A stretch of 64,000 nucleotides of DNA from Octopus sinensis (taxonomy: Eukaryota): NCBI RefSeq assembly GCF_006345805.1, contig NC_043003.1, positions 53,940,001-54,004,000 on the forward strand, read 5' to 3'. The notes beneath the pieces are model-generated. The model did not search any database and was not told where the DNA came from. It saw nothing but the letters and a program-made list of their open reading frames with translations. The translations under genes were made by a program, and so were the position numbers. Numbering within the stretch: position 1 is the stretch's first letter; the number at the start of each line of letters is the position of its first letter. Positions 32,835 through 60,845 of the stretch are shown here, piece by piece.

Positions 32835-33800
32835 CCTAGAGGCGAACTGGCGTACCGCTTTAGAATGGCACTAGACAAGCTTAAGCTAAGAATTAAGGTT
32901 GTAGAAAGGCTAGGTAACCCTTTCAAATCAATAATCGGTAGGACCTACCCTTTTAATAGAACCCCCTGTACTGATAGGAACTGTATTGTATGTAGAGTTA
33001 GCCCACAGACAAGTTGTAAAACTAGGAATGTAGTCAATAGAATAAGATGTACAGAGGGACGGTGCAGAAACAAGACAGTGACGTGCGTAGGGGAGATAGC
33101 ACGTAGCATAGGAGTGCGGTTTAATAGCATTTGAGGGAACTCAAGGAAGAGAAGAGCTCATCAGTTTTATATCAGCATGCCAGGCAGGAACACGGGGGCT
33201 CACTCAACAACATAGAAATAAAAATTTTGTCAACACATAGAAGGGACGCAACGCTTAGACAAATTACGGAAGCTACACACAAAATAGAAAATAAACCTAG
33301 TCTAAATAGAAAGCTAGAATGGAGCACTAGCACCCATTCACCACAACCCGATGACAATAAGATCTCCATAAATTAATAATAATATGAAACTAATACAATA
33401 GATAGATAGGTCAATGGAATTAAGTAATAAAATACATAGAATATAATAAATTAATACAAATAAAGAAAATAAGTAAAAATAAATAAATACAATAAAATGA
33501 ACGTGAATAAATCTGATAATGCTGGTACGAAACAGTTACCAAACATAGACACACACAGGGATTTACACATGCGCAAACAAAGGCACATGCAACAGGAACA
33601 CAAAGTGGCAGACCGTTCGGAAGGAGAGACACAAAAAAGAAAGAAGAAAGCAAGAAACCACTGATGAGGTCATAGAAGTGTGACGAAAGAACTCTGGCCG
33701 AAATATAATTAATATGAAATAAAGCTGAAGCAAGTGAACACCGAATATAGAGTGTGTGTGTTTTCATTAGCTAAATTGGCAGCATGACCATCTCTATATA
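32835..33800 (+). mobile_element. Penelope-like retroelement 3' fragment: linker, GIY-YIG endonuclease and pLTR
   Basis: CTDRNCIVC..CKTRNVVNRIRCTEGRC..CVGEIARSIGVRF / SVLYQHARQEH..LRQITEA..KPSLNRKLEW is a degraded GIY-YIG with CCHH. One frameshift at ~33127. An HHR motif lies downstream. Confidence 0.88.
33658..33697 (+). ncRNA. Minimal hammerhead motif in the PLE pLTR (imperfect)
   Basis: CCA-CUGAUGA-G-GUCA UAGAAGUG UGAC-GAAA-GAAC-UC^UGG. Confidence 0.6.
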
Positions 33801-35053
33801 CAACAATATTTCTTTCAACACGAGTTCACTTCACGAATTGTAAAACTTACTGATAGTATAACACAATATTATATTTATATTTATAATCACACTTTATGTT
33901 CCATAAACTTTATAAATTTATATATATGTGATATTTTAATACTTTCTTATATCCTTCCATAATTTTTCCATAGTGCTTGTAATTTATGAATAAATATTTT
34001 CAAGATCTTTTATATGTTTACCCGATTTAGAAATACCTATTTTATTGTTTATCTTTTAATCATGCATTTTTCCATGAATAGCTACCTGCCCATATCGGTT
34101 TAGCTATTACCTTTGCATGTACTCTATTATACATTTTGTGTACCTCTAATCTAATTACCCCTCACAAAGGATTCCATATGTTAGATATCTTTTACTTGTC
34201 CACCTGTAACTGAGGAGAATAATCCTTGTTTTGATTTAATATATACTATGCACTCCTACATAGATGGTAATTTCATTCATTAATAAATTCATTGTGGGAT
34301 GCCTTTATCATGACCACCTTAACAACATGCTTAGGAAAGGCCTTATGTACTTTCTCTTAGATATGAAAGTACCTCATTATTAGGTTCTAAGTTTAATTTC
34401 TAACCTTTTTCCTTTTTATTGATCTAAAATTCTTTTCTAAATTTAATATGATAAATTTGCTAAGTTATGATGCATCCTGTATAACCCCAGTTCTAATTCC
34501 CACCATTAGAGCTTACTTTTACTTCTTTTATTTTTCATTTATTCCTCTTTTATGTGATAATCTAAGTAAGTGATAGCCACTCCTACCCTTCCTTCTTCTA
34601 GTTATTACCTCTTCTCCATCAGTCATTCTCTCACTAGCATCTCTCAGACATATCCTTTTATGTAAATAAAGCTAGATATCTGGTCCTAGTAATATAAGGG
34701 TCTGGGAGATTGTATGACATTAATTAATTTATCGCTAGCAGCTGGAACATTATTAGATAACCCCCAATGGATTTAATTCTACATAGTTGTAGACTATATT
34801 CTGCATAAAATAAATAAAATAGAAAAAAAATATATATAAATAACTATTCCACCACTCCTATATCTTGGCCCCCACAATTTTCCTCTGCTACTCTCTAAAT
34901 TATAGTAGGCTTAGGATGCTATATATTTTTCTCTAAATTCATTCTGCTACAAGTATAACAAAAGGAAACAATGTATTATTTTGGTTTCTAGTATTGATAT
35001 AATGTGTTTCTAAAAATGGTTTATTTGTGATGTTGGAAACTTATATAGTCATC

Positions 35054-35142
35054 TGCGTCTGATGAGAGAGCGGTTTTTTTCAAGCTGATGTGGTGTTTTC
35101 ATTGATCGATTAAATGGAGCCGCTTGAAACGGCCGGAATGCA
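35054..35142 (+). ncRNA. Degenerate hammerhead with extended stem II
   Basis: UGCGU-CUGAUGA-GA-GAGCGGUU...AGCCGCUU-GAAAC-GGCC-GGA-AUGCA. The cleavage triplet reads GGA instead of GUH. Confidence 0.55.
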
Positions 35143-35236
35143 CTGATGCCTGGATATCTTTGTTACTTATTTGCTTTTTGTTCATCTAACTTTGAGCTGC
35201 ACGGACTATACCTAATTAACTGAATCTTAATGATAT

Positions 35237-35270
<34 letters not shown>

Positions 35271-35284
35271 ATATATATATATAT

Positions 35285-35803
35285 AATGTGAAATAGAAAG
35301 ATGAGTAATCTTGTAGCAGATTAATCAAAAGTTTAACCGATACCTTGGTAGCAAAAATCACAGCAGAAGACAGCACGGTTGGAGGTACAACCATATGGTG
35401 TTGCAACCGTGCGTTGGTGCGGATAATTGAAATTAAAATATTATTGGTGAATTGAAGAAATGGAGCTGAACGAAGATTGAACAGAAATCGTTTTATTTCA
35501 TTCTACACGTGTTTCGAAAGGCACAATTTACCAAAATCCGATTGAATAATGAGACCATATTGTGTCTTTCTCTTGCCATGGGCTCTTAGGAGCTTAGTTC
35601 GATTTGTTTTGCTCCGCCTCTGTTCTGTTTTTGTTTTTTCCAACGGATTTCCTATTTCTTCCTGAAGAGAAAGACACAATATGGTCTCATTATTCAATCG
35701 GATTTTGGTAAATTGTGCCTTTCGAAACACGTGTAGAATGAAATAAAACGATTTCTGTTCAATCTTCGTTCAGCTCCATTTCTTCAATTCACCAATAATA
35801 TTT
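35285..35803. mobile_element. Fold-back non-coding element in (TA)n with 139-bp inverted arms, carrying an HHR
   Basis: 35436-35574 is the reverse complement of 35665-35803, with a 90-bp spacer. Confidence 0.85.
35654..35744 (+). ncRNA. Type-I hammerhead ribozyme with long stem II
   Basis: AUUUCUUC-CUGAAGA-GAAAGACACAAU(..31 nt..)AUUGUGCCUUUC-GAAAC-ACGU-GUA^GAAUGAAAU. Intact core and palindrome ACACGUGU. Confidence 0.85.
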
Positions 35804-36004
35804 ATATATATATATATATATACTAAGCAATAAGGGTTTAGCAACGAGTTGCCTTACCACATACCGAATTTAGAAATAGCAGTCAAAGGGTTATAGCTAT
35901 TTCTTCTACTAAAAAGGGAGATCTCAGTAAAAACAGCATTTGGAAGGCACAAACAGGTAAGAGAGAATGAATTGACTGCAATCTATCATACATTTTTTTA
36001 GTTA

Positions 36005-36117
36005 TCCACGGACGTACGTTTCGAAATCAAGTTTTAAGGAAAACATACGAATTAAATATTAATATTAAATAATAAATAATTCTATCTTACCGAAACTTCT
36101 TTTCTCTTCAGCGTAGA
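36005..36117 (-). ncRNA. Hammerhead ribozyme, array unit 1
   Basis: Minus strand: UCUACG-CUGAAGA-GAAA AG AAGUUU...AAACUU GA UUUC-GAAAC-GUAC-GUC^CGUGGA. 6-bp stem I and ~80-nt stem II hairpin. Confidence 0.88.
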
Positions 36118-36606
36118 ATACTATAATCATAAATGATTATATATTGAATTTTGAGATACCAGAAGGCAACAACTCCACTCAGTATCAGAGCGAGCTAGAA
36201 CCCGCAACTGGTATCACCGAATTCAATTTGTGAATGAAACGATTGTGTCAACAGCCCCTTCCCACCCGCGTGTAGCCAAAACAAGATGCTGTGGTCATCT
36301 ACTGAGATAAAATATGGTTATCCGTAATAATGAAGGGTGAAATTAATTAATTTGGAAAAATTATCAATTACACCAAGTAGTCTTCGGCATGTAAAAGCCT
36401 CATTCGAGGAAAATTTAAGTAATACTAAGCAATAAGGGTTTAGCAACGAGTTGCCTTACCACATACCGAATTTAGAAATAGCAGTCAAAGGGTTATAGCT
36501 ATTTCTTCTACTAAAAAGGGAGATCTCAGTAAAAACAGCATTTGGAAGGCACAAACAGGTAAGAGAGAATGAATTGACTGCAATCTATCATACATTTTTT
36601 TAGTTA

Positions 36607-36718
36607 TCCACGGACGTACGTTTCGAAATCAAGTTTTAAGGAAAGCATACGAATTAAATATTAAATTTAATAATAAATAATTCTATCTTACCGAAACTTC
36701 TTTTCTCTTCAGCGTAGA
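36607..36718 (-). ncRNA. Hammerhead ribozyme, array unit 2
   Basis: Same motif as unit 1. Confidence 0.88.
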
Positions 36719-37206
36719 ATACTATAATCATAAATGATTATATATTGAATTTTGAGATACCAGAAGGCACCAACTCCACTCAGTATCAGAGCGAGCTAGA
36801 ACCCGCAACTGGTATCACCGAATTCAATTTGTGAATGAAACGATTGTGTCAACAGCCCCTTCCCACCCGCGTGTAGCAAAACAAGATGCTGTGGTCATCT
36901 ACTGAGATAAAATATGGTTATCCGTAATAATGAAGGGTGAAATTAATTAATTTGGAAAAATTATCAATTACACCAAGTAGTCTTCGGCATGTAAAAGCCT
37001 CATTCGAGGAAAATTTAAGTAATACTAAGCAATAAGGGTTTAGCAACGAGTTGCCTTACCACATACCGAATTTAGAAATAGCAGTCAAAGGGTTATAGCT
37101 ATTTCTTCTACTAAAAAGGGAGATCTCAGTAAAAACAGCATTTGGAAGGCACAAACAGGTAAGAGAGAATGAATTGACTGCAATCTATCATACATTTTTT
37201 TAGTTA

Positions 37207-37320
37207 TCCACGGACGTACGTTTCGAAATCAAGTTTTAAGGAAAGCATACGAATTAAATATTAAATATTAAATAATAAATAATTCTATCTTACCGAAACT
37301 TCTTTTCTCTTCAGCGTAGA
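37207..37320 (-). ncRNA. Hammerhead ribozyme, array unit 3
   Basis: Same motif as unit 1. Confidence 0.88.
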
Positions 37321-37845
37321 ATACTATAATCATAAATGATATATATTGAATTTTGAGATACCAGAAGGCACCAACTCCACTCAGTATCAGAGCGAGCTAG
37401 AACCCGCAACTGGTATCACCGAATTCAATTTGTGAATGAAACGATTGTGTCAACAGCCCCTTCCCACCCGCGGTGTAGCCAAAACAAGATGCTGTGGTCA
37501 TCTACTGAGATAAAATATGGTTATCCGTAATAATGAAGGGTGAAATTAATTAATTTGGAAAAATTATCAATTACACCAAGTAGTCTTCGGCATGTAAAAG
37601 CCTCATTCGAGGAAAATTTAAGTAATACTAAGCAATAAGGGTTTAGCAACGAGTTGCCTTACCACATACCGAATTTAGAAATAGCAGTCAAAGGGTTATA
37701 GCTATTTCTTCTACTAAAAAGGGAGTTCTCAGTAAAAACAGCATTTGGAAGGCACAAACAGGTAAGAGAGAATGAATTGACTGCAATATATATATATATA
37801 TATAATATATATATATTATATATATATATATATTATATATATATA

Positions 37846-38037
37846 TAGTAAAGATTGTTTGCCAGCATAACATAGCAGTCCTGGTTTAGACGAATGTTGC
37901 TGTAATTTAACCCAGGAAACATCGTCTCCAGCTGGCTATACGATACGAGCTGGAGATGATGCTTCATGGGACTAAATTACTGCAACATTCGTCCTAAACC
38001 AGGACTGCCATATTATGTTGGCAAACAATCTTTACTA
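37846..38037. repeat. ~190-bp imperfect palindrome (fold-back/MITE-like)
   Basis: TAGTAAAGATTGTTTGCCA..GCAGTCCTGGTTTAG..CTCCAGCT is mirrored by AGCTGGAG..CTAAACCAGGACTGC..TGGCAAACAATCTTTACTA. Confidence 0.85.
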
Positions 38038-38504
38038 CGAAGTACAGTTGTTGAATATCTCTTGTTGTGAAATTTGAAAATAGTAATTTTCTAATATATA
38101 TATATGTATGCATGTATGCATGTATATTTTTGGCATTTTTGTATAATTATTATTATTTTTCTCCTGTTGTATATAGCCGTAAGGTTTCGCGTTGTTATAT
38201 ATGCATAATTCTTCGTCTGTTATATTTATATATTGTCTTATGTGTTTCTGACACAGTATACATTCGCTAGCTTTTTCCCAGTCGCTTAATAACTGCACTG
38301 GCACCACCAAGATTGAATGGTCTCAACGATAATGGTGCAAAACCACGATGATATTTTGGTTCATTGACTCAACTGCGAATACTTCGTGTATGGTGTCGTT
38401 GTCTATATTCCCCGTCCATTAAGTTTTCGTCTAGTTACCCGTTTGCTCTGCATTCATCTAACTTTATCTCCTCGTTGTGTTTTGCATATTTATATATGGT
38501 CATT

Positions 38505-38745
38505 TGGAGGCGCATGGTTTAATGTTATGGTATTTCACTTGTGATCGTAAGATTGTGGTTTCGATTCCTAAACCGGACGATGCTTTATGTTGTTAAAACA
38601 CTTCATTTCCAATTTCTTCAGTGGCAAAAATGAGTAATCCTTCGACGGACCGGCGTTCCCTCCATCGAGGGGAATACAGACTTCACATAATCCGGGAAAC
38701 CTGCCTAATGAGCATATGGGCCGGGAAGGAATTCTGATCTTATTT
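38505..38745 (+). mobile_element. Degenerate SINE (family C-related)
   Basis: TGGAGGCGCATGG..GGTTTCGATTCC..CGACGGACCGGCGTTCC..CCGGGAAACC. Confidence 0.65.
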
Positions 38746-39106
38746 GATATCAGGTCATGTGCAAATATAATTTGGCATAGCACTAGGCTTCCTGATATTT
38801 TTCTTAGTACACAAACACACACAAACACAAATACTCGTAGACGTACCTATGTAAGCGTGTTCTCACAAAAATGCACGCTCATTAGCGTTTACATTTACTT
38901 ATTCAGACTTATTTAATATTCAAATACACACGTATGTTTCGAAAGTGAAAATGTACAAACTTAAATAGTTGCATCCGAGCAAATATGTATTGTGTATGTG
39001 AGCGTGTGTTCGTGTGTGTTCGTGTGTGTATGTGTGCGTGAGTGCCTTTCTTCCCATCTATCTATCTATGCATTATATACATATATATATACATACACAT
39101 ATATAC

Positions 39107-39161
<55 letters not shown>

Positions 39162-39649
39162 TTTCAAAGGACTATGACTATGCTGGGGACCGACCTCAGT
39201 TGTTACTTTTGTGCTTGATACTTATGATACCGGGTCCTTTTCTCGAACCTCTACCTATCTATATCGCTTTTCATATATTTCGTAATATTCTACTATACAC
39301 ACAAGCGCGTGTACGCGAACGCTCACACATACGCACACATTTACACGCACGCAACACACACACACACACACTCGCGCGCGTGTGTATTTGCATATGTATA
39401 TTTGTGTGTGTGTGTGTGTGTGTGTGTGTAAGTATGTACATATATGAGAGCTGTTGTGCCTTCGTGTGTGTTGCATCCTTGACATACGATGTCAGATGTT
39501 CAGCATTAAGGTAAGAAAACGTAAAAGAAAACGAAAACCTCCATTTCCAATTAATGTCTCTGACGTGGTTGCCCAATTCTGTTTAGTTTGTTTTTCGCCG
39601 ACTTTCTTTCATAATCATATCCTCCTCCTCCTTTACTCTTTTTCCTTCT

Positions 39650-39975
39650 TCTCCACCCCCTCCTCGTCGTTGTCATCGTCGACGTCGTCGTCGGGGGTCA
39701 TTATTATCATCAACGTTACGGTAAACATAATTGCCAAGAAAATTACCATCGTCATCATCATCATCATCATCCATCATCATCTGTCATCATCATCACGATC
39801 AATCATCATCATCATCATCATCATTATCATCATTATCATCATCATCATCAACATCATCGACGTCATCGTCATCATCATCATCATCATCATCATCAATTTC
39901 TAGCCCCACCAGCGCCACTACCAGCACCATCACCACCAACATCACCACCACCACCACCACCACCATCATCATTAC
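39650..39975. repeat. (CGT)/(CAT)n/(CAC)n trinucleotide tract
   Basis: Directly visible. Confidence 0.9.
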
Positions 39976-40556
39976 TATTTTTTCTTCATCTGACTTTTCT
40001 CCAATTTCTTCCAAGATCTTCTCTCATACATATGCACTCACATATACGCGTTTGTGTGTAGCATACCTATGTAATTATACTATAACAAACGTATTTGGTT
40101 GCATGTTTATACACACACACACACACACCACACACACAGTCACACAGATGTAAATACGTGTGTGAGCGTGTGAATAGGTGTGTGTGTGTGTTTTTGTTTG
40201 TGTATTTTTCATACAGGCGTGTGTTCATACTTACATGCATTCATACAAAATACATCCCCAAACATACCTAGATAGGTAGATGCAGTGAACCAAATACAAA
40301 TTCATGATAATAGGATAATAGAAAGGAACAACACTAAATCTTGGTTTTCATAACCTCTGTAGACTTAGCATAGAGATGAACACCACATGGGGTCCGGTAA
40401 TTAAAAACCGAAAGAACATTAAACCAACGACCATAAAGAGTAATGTTAAAAGCTTCTTATTTTCCACTATGTAATTCTCCCTATACGACAATGAGAAAGT
40501 TAATACAAGGGATAGAAGTGCTGATTACGCATTAGATATACGTGTTTAGTTATGAA

Positions 40557-40865
40557 GGAGCATAGCTCAATGGTTAGAGCGTCGGGCTCATGATAATGAG
40601 GCAGTGAGTATAATTTTCGGGCCGAGCTGCGTGTTGCTCCAGTTCACGCAGCTGTAGAAATGAGTTTCAACGTCACTGGTGCCAAGCTGTATCGGCCTTT
40701 GCCGTTCCCTTGGATAACAGCAGTAGCATAGAGAAGGAACACTGCTATGTATAAGCGACTGCTGGTCTTCCATAAACAACATTGCCTGGACTTGTGCCTC
40801 GGAGGGTAACTTTCTAGGTACAATCCCATTGTCATTCATGACCGAGTGGGGTTTTACCCCCTTTG
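40557..40865 (+). mobile_element. tRNA-headed SINE (fourth family)
   Basis: GGAGCATAGCTCAATGGTTAGAGCGTCGGGCTCATG A-box head followed by a SINE-like body. Confidence 0.6.
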
Positions 40866-40995
40866 TTTATAAATGTCTAACTTGTGGAAGCGATTTCAAT
40901 TTCTACGTCAGTCAAGCTATATATATTTTGCCTCATGCATAATAGACTAAACGTATCTCAAGTAGTATAATGATAATAATAAGGATCGCAAGACC

Positions 40996-41210
40996 GTGAG
41001 CTAGCAGAATCGTTAGCACACAGAGCAAAACACTTAACAACATTTCGTCCGTCCATACGTTCCGAGTTCAAATTCCGCTGGGGTCGACTTTGCCTTTCAT
41101 CCTTTGGAGGTCGATTAAATAAGTACCAGTTGAGCACTTGGGTTGATGCAATCGATTTAGTCCCTCTCTCGAAATTGCTGGCCTTCTGCCAAAATGTGAA
41201 ACCAATAATA
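40996..41210 (+). mobile_element. SINE family A
   Basis: GAGCTAGCAGAATCGTTAGCAC..GTTCAAATTCCGCTGGGGTCGACTTTGCCTTTCATCC. Confidence 0.85.
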
Positions 41211-42263: not shown

Positions 42264-42337
<74 letters not shown>

Positions 42338-42517
42338 AAAGGGCTTAGTAAAATAAATTACTTTGCCGCATACTGAACTCATTAGAAATAGTAGCTAAAA
42401 AACTTTTTTAAAACTATTTCTAATACTTAAAGAAAACTCTCTCTCATATAGTGTTTGCTCAATTCAACTCACGAAAGTATGGGGGTAAAGACATTAAAAA
42501 ATCAAATGCAAAGGTTA

Positions 42518-42573
42518 TTTGAGAACGTACGTTTCAAGATTAGTCAACTCGACATTTCTATCATCAGCTCAGA
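42518..42573 (-). ncRNA. Hammerhead ribozyme in the 559-bp unit
   Basis: Minus strand: UGAG-CUGAUGA-U-AGAAAUGUC GAGUU GACUAAUCU-U-GAAAC-GUAC-GUU^CUCA. Confidence 0.8.
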
Positions 42574-43141
42574 ACTCCTTGGTTTGGATTTGAAAACACT
42601 GAAAGTGGGAGCATACCCTTTCGACTTCTTATCGCTTCTGAAGATCTGCTCGAAACTAACAGTGCCAGCAAACTCAAATATGCAAGCGAAGAATTTCTTC
42701 TGCTCCCCCTTTCCACCAGCGTGGGTTAAAATCAGTAAACACTATGCTTTTTCGGTAAAATCCGAGGCATTAAATAGAGAGAGATGATTATAATTTCAAC
42801 AATTGAGGGTAAAAGTAATTAATTATTAATCAATTTCACCAAGTATTCAGTATGCAAAGGACCATTTAAGGCGAATTCAAATTAATACATTATATAAAAG
42901 GGCTTAGTAAAATAATTACTTTGCCGCATACTGAACTCATTAGAAATAGTAGCTAAAAAAAACTTTTTTAAAACTATTTCTAATACTTAAAGACCACGCT
43001 GGTGGAAAGGGGAGAGCAGAAATTCTTCGCTTGCATATTTGAGTTTGCTGGCACTGTTAGTTTCGAGCAGATCTTCAGAAGCGATAAGAAGCCGAAAGGG
43101 TATGCTCCCACCTTCAGTGTTTTCAAATCCAACCAAGGAGT

Positions 43142-43196
43142 TCTGAGCTGATGATAGAAATGTCGAGTGACTAATCTTGAAACGTACGTTCTCAAA
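43142..43196 (+). ncRNA. Hammerhead ribozyme in the inverted copy
   Basis: TGAG CTGATGA TAGAAATGTCGAGTGACTAATCTT GAAAC GTAC GTT CTCA. Confidence 0.8.
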
Positions 43197-43577
43197 TAAC
43201 CTTTGCATTTGATTTTTTAATGTCTTTACCCCCATACTTTCGTGAGTTGAATTGAGCAAACACTATATGAGAGAGGTTTTCTTTAAGTATTAGAAATAGT
43301 TTTAAAAAAGTTTTTTTAGCTACTATTTCTAATGAGTTCAGTATGCGGCAAAGTAATTTATTTTACTAAGCCCTTTTATATAATGTAATAATTTGAATTC
43401 GCCTTAAATGGTCCCTTTGCATACTGAATACTTGGTGAAATTGATTAATAATTAATTAATTTTACCCTCAATTGTTGAAATTATATATATATATATATAT
43501 ACATACACACATGCAGGCAAATACGTTTGTTATAGTATAATTACGTATGTGTGCAAATTATGAGAGAAGTTCTTGGA

Positions 43578-50395: not shown

Positions 50396-51390
50396 ATATA
50401 AACGGATGTGAAATGTTAAATCGGTAGATTGTAGTCTATTACTAGCAGTATCGCCCGGCGTTGCTCGGGTTTGTAAGGGAAATAACTATAAAGCATTTTT
50501 AGAGAGTTATAGCCAAAAAATAGCAAAAAAATGGAAAAAATATTATGGTAAATTTTTTTTTGAGAGTTAAAACGGTCGAGTTGCGTCCCCTAGACAGTCT
50601 GTGGTTTGTGTTTCTGATTCTCGACCCCATGTCGAATTTATCAATTTTTTTTAGAACTGGGGGAACTTTTCAAAATTTTCTCTGCGTTAGTTTTGAATTA
50701 TGACATTGGGCTATGTGTGTGTCAAGTTTCATCAGAATCGGTTGAAAGCCGTGGTCAGGGTGAGGGTACAACCTAACAGACACACAGAAACACACACAGA
50801 CAAACTGCCGTTTATATAGAGAGAGATGTCTTGGGGTAACTGGTCACTAATAAACTACACCGAGGAAATCTGAGATCGGTAACTGGTTGGAATTGCGACC
50901 GTATTGCCAAGAATAGACTTAAGACTTAATACTGACTGCATTGCTCACATTATATTTCAAACCAATTTTCGTTTACTAAAACTGTGGGTACATAAAGCAA
51001 TTACTGACCACTTATGTTTTCTGTGCTTGTGAGTAAGTCAACAATATTTGCTCGAGTGTAATGACCCGCTGTACTTTACATTTAAATATAAACGGATGTG
51101 AAATGTTAAATCGGTAGATTGTAGTCTATTATGTCTTGGGGTAACTGGTCACTAATAAACTACACCGAGGAAATCTGAGATCGGTAACTGGTTGGAATTG
51201 CGACCGTATTGCCAAGAATAGACTTAAGACTTAATACTGACTGCATTGCTCACATTATATTTCAAACCAATTTTCGTTTACTAAAACTGTGGGTACATAA
51301 AGCAATTACTGACCACTTATGTTTTCTGTGCTTGTGAGTATGTCAACAATATTTGCTCGAGTGTAATGACCCGCTGTACTTTACATTTAA
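50396..51390 (+). repeat. 305-bp tandem duplication (copy 1 at 50396-51085 interrupted by a Helitron; copy 2 at 51086-51390)
   Basis: The copies are nearly identical apart from the 385-bp insert. Confidence 0.95.
50442..50826 (-). mobile_element. Non-autonomous Helitron, 385 bp
   Basis: The minus strand starts TC and ends CTAG, preceded by hairpin CCCG AGCAACGC CGGG. It is inserted between A and T with no TSD; the empty site TCTATTA|TGTCTTGG is at 51125-51139. Confidence 0.93.
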
Positions 51391-60727: not shown

Positions 60728-60729
<2 letters not shown>

Positions 60730-60845
60730 AAATAAGGGTTTAGCAACAAGCTGCTTCACCACCTACCGAAAATTTAGAAATAGCAGCCAAAAGACAGCTA
60801 ATTCTTTTCACTACAATTTTAGGACTCCACAGACAATAATATTTG
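60728..60845 (-). mobile_element. Truncated end of a relative of the 600-bp HHR unit, in (TA)n
   Basis: AATAAGGGTTTAGCAACAAGCTGCTTCACCACCTACCGAAAATTTAGAAATAGCAGCCAAA aligns with 35829-35887. Confidence 0.8.

Follow-up and report, generated by a model that had tools for sequence, protein, structure and literature searches.

The window analyzed here is a 64,000-nucleotide stretch of the Octopus sinensis genome, and it contains a tandem array of 3.27 units set between two (TA)n microsatellites (Table 1). The first-pass annotation had described about 3.3 nearly identical head-to-tail units without an ORF, and our measurements agree with it. The units start at 35821, 36423, 37023 and 37626 and are 99.0-99.2% identical, with nine variable alignment columns. 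The array has no ORF, and its longest stop-free frame is 57 aa. Positions within a unit are numbered in the ribozyme sense, with q1 as the first base 3′ of the predicted cleavage site.

Table 1. Features of the tandem array and its surroundings, in window coordinates.
Feature	Position	Strand	Remarks
Tandem array, 3.27 units	35821..37787	minus	single-armed insertion; 602+600+603+162 bp
Array ends in ribozyme sense	3′ = site A (q190/191), 5′ = q29	minus	
(TA)n target microsatellite	35803..35820	.	at array 3′ (site A) end
(TA)n target microsatellite	37786..37847	.	at array 5′ end
Type I hammerhead 1	36005..36117	minus	predicted cleavage between 36011 and 36010
Type I hammerhead 2	36607..36718	minus	predicted cleavage 36613/36612
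Type I hammerhead 3	37207..37320	minus	predicted cleavage 37213/37212
Site-to-site monomer, 602 nt	36011..36612	minus	predicted linear or circular RNA
Structured module q97-q295	36318..36516	minus	once per unit; common to at least five cousin families
End sites in module	A q191 = 36422; B q286-301 = 36327-36312	minus	each just 3′ of a hairpin

All three whole units encode a complete type I hammerhead ribozyme, and the partial fourth unit is without one. The full core and 6-bp stem I reported at first pass were recovered with a strict descriptor, which matches exactly three sites in the window and none of 2,000 shuffled units. On the minus strand, the CUGAAGA part of the core lies at 36111-36105, 36712-36706 and 37314-37308, and GAAAC-GUAC-GUC lies at 36022-36011, 36624-36613 and 37224-37213. 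Stem I includes one G-U pair, the base of stem II has 4 bp, and the GUAC loop is palindromic. Stem II is extended to about 82 nt. An Rfam scan of positions 33,000-41,000 (E<=1) returned no hammerhead, and its 28 matches resembled microsatellite noise; the array hammerheads are probably missed because stem II is so long, which suggests that families of this kind are undercounted. Across a set of 38 loci, in which 164 pieces span the core, the core and stem I deviate in 18 instances, five of them at the variable N7. A variant at position 36609, found in contigs of runs X2, X3 and X10, changes the stem I G-U pair to A-U and keeps the helix. All sequence-level features of a non-LTR retrozyme are present, with cleavage and a circular RNA predicted.

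More hammerheads occur near the PLE loci L074, L088, L089, L091 and L093, several with a stem II of about 30-50 nt and a palindromic loop 3. Hammerheads with a long stem II seem common in the Octopus sinensis genome. Directly left of the array is a two-armed element in (TA)n (35286-35803) with a 139-nt perfect inverted repeat and one arm about 150 nt longer. By eye, it contains a hammerhead with a short stem I (CUGAAGA ... GAAAC-ACGU-GUA) at about 35658-35738, and it is likely an unrelated PLE-type remnant. A MITE-like element (37846-38037) with 44-nt terminal inverted repeats lies directly right of the (TA)n tract of the array. Elsewhere, at 50826-51390, there are 1.9 copies of a 305-bp tandem at 99% identity.

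The array belongs to a young, dispersed family of several hundred scattered copies. The unit has at least 220 matches throughout the 2.72-Gb genome (best 40 of 566 candidates scored), and a family 36-mer has 1,079 exact matches genome-wide, with none for the control. We analyzed two sets of copies. The top-hit set comprises 38 independent loci (40 were fetched and L043 and L044, duplicates of L031, were dropped) and is biased toward long arrays; its hazard table omits L051, the contig-end arm of L052, and four C1 loci. The C1 census covers all 46 loci with the family 36-mer on contig C1, which hold 48 insertions. By the 36-mer search and the census, copies are mobile and dispersed and range from monomer to multimer. 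Dispersed multimeric copies with permuted ends had been predicted, and the dispersal is confirmed by the 36-mer and unit searches, but permutation is limited to the 5′ end, as the 3′ end falls at one of two fixed sites.

Contigs of four sequencing runs from three organisms cover the unit at 90-99% identity, a comparison in which circle and tandem, or RNA and DNA, look the same. These contigs also contain the head-to-tail join and (TA)n-joined ends at or near sites A and B. One locus was assembled three times, with an arm of 3.4 units in L031 and 2.4 in L043 and L044, and copy number may therefore change at the DNA level or by misassembly. The units also have noise of the kind seen in long reads (144 insertions and 255 deleted bases in 108 units).

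The 3′ ends of the copies fall at two sites about 100 nt apart, A (q188-201, mostly q191) and B (q286-306), and meet the target at TA-like microhomology. All 26 two-armed insertions in the C1 census are head-to-head; 22 combine an A and a B end, none has A+A or B+B, and four have one unclassed end. The 22 single-armed insertions end at A in 20 cases and at B in two, and for this reason we regard A as a true start. The top-hit set gives a similar picture, with A+B in 21 of 25 two-armed insertions (the others are one A+A, two A with another end, and one cut by a contig end) and A in 13 of 13 single-armed ones. Arm junctions mostly overlap by 1-5 nt. By our own reading of the census, 93 of 96 C1 ends adjoin a TA-type microsatellite, and the other three adjoin an N gap, a cousin family, and one other sequence. 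Flanks and junctions differ between loci. No target-site duplication is discernible, since the insertions sit inside (TA)n, where duplications are hidden.

Fixed 3′ ends at two sites, 5′ truncation, and an inverted 5′ arm are the signature of PLE "tails" and inversions, a pattern described in PMC8557442. A PLE protein is reported to nick and extend both strands in vitro starting at two internal RNA positions that correspond to the genomic "tail" (PMC11167929). In a young ORF-bearing PLE of the octopus genome, the two ends likewise lie in (TA)n, separated by about 70 nt (seven short and four long ends in 14 loci).

Both end sites lie in the module at q97-295, which we infer to be the binding and start signal for a PLE protein. 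It recurs at about 70-75% identity in at least five cousin families, whose tandem units are 558-589 bp long. The CUGANGA core occurs in four of five representative cousin units and is absent from the L201 unit. The cousins, where examined, are (TA)n insertions that pair an A end with a B end. A search with a degenerate A-hairpin pattern, which captures the module more broadly, gave 14,023 exact matches and none for the control. Over 13 distinct sequences, 94.6% of pair cells in the module structure are kept, compared with 35-48% in slid controls; pairs changed on both sides number 6 of 32, and a manual count gave 37 G-U cells and 8 A-C cells. This conservation is supportive only, because the structure comes from these sequences themselves, which are related to one another.

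Folded as a circle, the 602-nt monomer has a predicted energy of -160 kcal/mol (z -6.2) with 65% of bases paired, and none of 40 shuffles folds as well. The ribozyme strands of six families, also folded as circles, have z of -4.8 to -8.5 (12 shuffles each). The antisense strand folds well too (z -1.5 to -4.9), and the fold does not require a circle, which counts against our preferred reading (below).

Several cousins were seen along the way. In the window, a two-armed insertion at 42332-43480 has a unit of about 560 bp and its own hammerhead with a GUAC loop, with the A end at left and the B end at right. Its family is very young, with 100% identical copies elsewhere and 742 candidates, and appears to dominate the first-listed matches to the A-hairpin pattern. 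Another cousin, at 60729-60845, is short and single-armed and ends at site A between (TA)n tracts. At L349:2633-8300 (C1, about 18.22 Mb), a copy with nine crossings is fused at q85 with a two-armed cousin-family piece. This single example suggests template switching between families on one enzyme.

We searched for a PLE that could act as helper. No ORF with RT and GIY-YIG was found in the unit or continuous with any of the 48 C1 insertions. A Pfam search for GIY-YIG gave at least 147 matches (best 150 of 5,029 candidates scored). The unit had no blastn match in 31 GIY-YIG loci, and a profile search had one match, L097, which is a cousin-family copy. By blastn and profile, the module is absent from three young ORF-bearing PLE families, two Neptune-like and one Hydra-like. 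These insert in (TA)n, and the two Neptune-like families have RT and GIY-YIG matches; the second Neptune-like family has 30 loci and the Hydra-like family 44. We take these clade labels from motifs and from the account in PMC8557442, and not from a tree. PLE ORF fragments occur in 8 of 150 cousin-family loci. Two of the three best-placed fragments are parted from the module by a TA microsatellite, and the third, according to the match table, points the other way from the nearer copy of the module. The helper may recognize RNA structure, or it may be among the unscored candidates.

Two of the young PLE groups are described by locus. L282-L295 have 727-aa ORFs with RT and a C-terminal endonuclease, carry a hammerhead, insert in (TA)n with two ends separated by about 70 nt, and are Hydra-like by description. 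L086-L100 are a Neptune-like PLE with a 781-aa ORF after an overlapping open frame of 479 aa, a (TA)n end, and a tail of about 35-40 nt.

Variants within arrays are largely shared. Variants covered by at least two units of a locus comprise 47 fixed in every unit (22 of them in both arms), 12 mosaic, and 141 single ones. Fixed variants private to one locus number 16, and the 38 loci contain 19 fixed haplotypes. Divergence within arms (0.0039) is close to that across arms (0.0038), and between loci it is 0.0075 (about 0.0074 in label shuffles). These values fit arrays that are clones of one monomer, and new variants fixed in all units need repeated steps from monomer to multimer. The 12 mosaic variants, such as 506G in 5 of 11 units of L033 and 561G in 6 of 9 units of L060, argue against a single monomer unless polishing or template switching produced them. 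Passage through the site leaves an exact junction in 159 of 166 cases (background 0.90), and one of the seven imperfect junctions duplicates 4 nt there. A linear monomer on which the enzyme jumps template repeatedly was considered and is disfavored, with 7 of 166 junctions imperfect.

The 5′ ends suggest three templates. In the C1 census, stops concentrate in two zones that were chosen after inspecting the data, q84-113 (23 stops compared with 3.0 expected) and q1-30 (13 compared with 2.3 expected). On the first lap, 10 of 41 C1 passages stop in q1-30. Counted per insertion passing q61 on the first lap, 7 of 29 stop in q1-30 and 0 of 29 in q31-60 (p 0.01). Both arms of L377 end exactly at q1 with four extra bases between them, and L376 has an end at the cleavage site inside a 2-nt microhomology. 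The first-lap stops and these two loci fit run-off from ribozyme-cut RNA. On later laps 5 of 130 passages stop in q1-30, against a background of about 2.3% per 30 nt, and the array in the window falls in this class, which is not clearly enriched: it crossed the cleavage site three times and then ended at q29. The 28-nt offset between its 5′ end and the site, pointed out in the first-pass annotation, is real and is a weak argument for a cleaved template at this array. Our first reading of the offset, from the top-hit set, was chance, as 5′ ends in that set are not clustered at the site (5 of 63 compared with 3.1 expected, one of the five being a filter artefact in L049); we gave it up when the C1 census showed the first-lap enrichment.

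Stops in q84-113 also belong mainly to the first lap (22 of 68 passages compared with 1 of 32 later-lap passages on C1, p 7e-4), and the C1 and top-hit sets pooled give 5 of 138 on later laps. They are specific to position, being the same for A and B starts, and may mark a transcription start, a block to decay at bound protein, or the base of a long rod helix. Abortive early synthesis was rejected as their cause because arms started at A and at B share positions, not distance.

Arms that have crossed the site stop at random, as expected of an endless template, with a mean later-lap run of about 1.3 kb. The final stops of 78 crossing arms are enriched in neither zone (5 compared with 6.7 and 5 compared with 3.9 expected). 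The two arms of an insertion belong to one class in 22 of 22 informative cases and 23 of 26 overall, a concordance reached in 0 of 100,000 shuffles, although folding back of a single cDNA would produce it too.

We consider it very probable that the array is a retrozyme moved by a PLE enzyme. Our preferred reading, which we judge likely with less assurance, is a PLE-mobilized non-LTR retrozyme whose multimers come from rolling-circle reverse transcription of the predicted circle. The proposal made at first pass, a recent multimeric cDNA copy of a self-cleaved or circular RNA moved by PLE enzymes, gains support, as dispersed multimers, PLE-type ends, the stops, and shared variants fit a circular monomer as template. 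Movement of animal retrozymes by PLEs from circular RNA has been proposed (PMC7229834, PMC4209133), and the mechanism is said to remain to be elucidated (10.64898/2026.07.22.740005).

From the anatomy of the copies, their dispersal, the positions of their ends, and the sharing of variants, we infer the following cycle. Tandem arrays would be transcribed, and the hammerheads would cut the RNA to 602-nt monomers, probably as dimers formed through the self-complementary ACGUACGU stem III; a palindromic loop 3 is reported to permit dimeric cleavage in the metazoan type I hammerhead (PMC4209133). Some monomers would circularize. A PLE protein acting in trans would bind the q97-295 module and nick (TA)n, and reverse transcription would be primed internally, nearly always at A and, in about half of events, also at B, which lies about 100 nt 3′ of A and would be used on the opposite DNA strand. 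On linear RNA the enzyme would run off near q1, at the end of a cleaved monomer, or at q62-113, at a second RNA 5′ end or a block. On a circle it would lap and drop off at random. Two cDNAs would then join head-to-head by a few nucleotides of microhomology, or one cDNA would join (TA)n. The array at 35821..37787 would be a single-arm event with three crossings of the cleavage site.

The alternative that survives best, although we think it unlikely, retains PLE-driven insertion and has multimers copied from uncleaved linear tandem transcripts, with circles absent or a by-product. The PAc protein inserts unprocessed RNA in vitro and its ribozyme is reported as dispensable there (PMC11167929), the mosaic arrays L033 and L060 fit a heterogeneous multimer, and exact junctions are expected under this alternative as well. 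On a linear multimer the enzyme would still meet a 5′ end or the same folded units, but stops at q84-113 and q1-30 largely vanish after the first crossing. The 19 array-fixed haplotypes require repeated monomer-to-multimer steps, and no daughter has the arm junction of a parent, since none of the 26 C1 arm junctions recurs in any other fetched locus.

Less probable again is that the inverted second arm is the fold-back of one cDNA started at B, with no second priming. This would explain the agreement of the arms in class, and the arm junctions of short insertions are near-symmetric (for example q101/q95 and q1/q1). The junctions of multimers are mostly strongly asymmetric, however, and single-armed insertions end predominantly at A, a true start, from which a first-lap cDNA lacks q192-294. 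PAc, moreover, primes on both strands (PMC11167929).

We find it somewhat more improbable still that short PLE-type insertions were later expanded in DNA by unequal crossing-over, in the manner of a satellite, a scenario discussed in 10.64898/2026.07.22.740005. Unequal crossing-over would homogenize the units of a locus too, and the assemblies L031 and L043/L044 differ by one unit. It does not predict that inverted arms share haplotypes, with divergence across arms half that between loci. Nor does length follow divergence (rho 0.25, p 0.16, n=33): arrays of 8.4 and 8.5 units have no substitutions outside q543-575. Arm lengths decay as drop-off predicts (no crossing in 43 arms, one in 21, two in 4, and three or more in 6). 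We place very little weight on the unit being a mere pseudo-LTR of an autonomous PLE, or on the array being an assembly artefact: the unit does behave like a PLE end, and the helper search scored only the best 150 candidates, but nearly all C1 ends adjoin TA-type microsatellite and none runs into a PLE ORF, while each locus has distinct flanks and junctions and the head-to-tail join recurs in the contigs of four other runs.

Taken together with the preferred rolling-circle reading, the evidence allows a broader joint reading, which we offer tentatively and hold at somewhat below even. In it, a superfamily of at least six retrozyme families of 560-600 nt would record the full PLE cycle on circular RNA. 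The conserved module of two hairpins would set, on a single template, one start for each DNA strand; the ribozyme would cut in vivo, multimers would be rolling-circle cDNA, recognition would be by structure with no sequence-related helper, and L349 would reflect template switching between families. Several results count against the preferred rolling-circle reading: the PAc PLE used uncleaved RNA in vitro, where the ribozyme was dispensable (PMC11167929), 8 of 9 predicted Xenopus retrozymes are reported not to have cleaved (10.64898/2026.07.22.740005), and neither the three young ORF-bearing families nor the surroundings of 150 cousin-family loci yielded a helper PLE with the module.

In several hundred young copies, start sites, run-off points, and laps can be counted, which makes the proposed retrozyme mechanism testable from copy ends. 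The predictions are specific: RNA with 5′ ends at q1 and close to q62-113, a circle of 602 nt, and starts at q191 and q286-301. How PLEs come to form tails, inversions, and tandems is a question on which the family has a bearing, and a 200-nt structured module that directs (TA)n insertion would be a compact substrate for PLE biochemistry. A search of titles, with subscription journals largely beyond its coverage, found no paper that treats a retrozyme in cephalopods. The long stem II, the tail of about 100 nt, and two-armed (TA)n insertions are not described in the portions of the retrozyme literature that we compared.

The array hammerheads resemble the canonical metazoan type I hammerhead as presented in PMC4209133, with a helix I of 6 bp, a helix II of 4 bp, and a helix III of 2 bp with a palindromic loop; they differ in having an internal loop and a long AT-rich extension in place of loop II. 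Animal non-LTR retrozymes, as described in PMC7229834 and 10.64898/2026.07.22.740005, share the non-coding tandem units with one type I hammerhead each, low GC, a strongly self-paired predicted circle, and coexisting PLEs. The unit had seemed unusually large at first pass; at 602 bp it is not exceptional, falling within the 51-972 bp reported for animal retrozyme families (10.64898/2026.07.22.740005). Expression and cleavage have been demonstrated for animal retrozymes in these sources and are predicted for the octopus family. It is set apart from them, as they are described there, by a stem II of about 82 nt, a (TA)n target without discernible duplication, head-to-head two-armed insertions, and two fixed ends.

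The non-autonomous Chlamys elements, for example MRC1 (PMC8557442), are likewise non-autonomous PLE derivatives with multicopy head-to-tail insertions. In that account they generally resemble their helper at the 3′ end, whereas we found no matching helper here, and most are without a canonical hammerhead, whereas one is present here. EN+ PLEs, such as Poseidon PAc (PMC11167929) and the Neptune and Hydra clades (PMC8557442), have in common with the octopus family two internal reverse transcription starts 3′ of the ribozyme, a "tail" at one end, 5′ truncation, an inverted 5′ arm, and a bias to (TA)n. Compared with EN+ PLEs as reported in these sources, the octopus family has no ORF, its tail is about 95-110 nt and theirs 30-40, and its arms have up to nine crossings where they have partial tandems.
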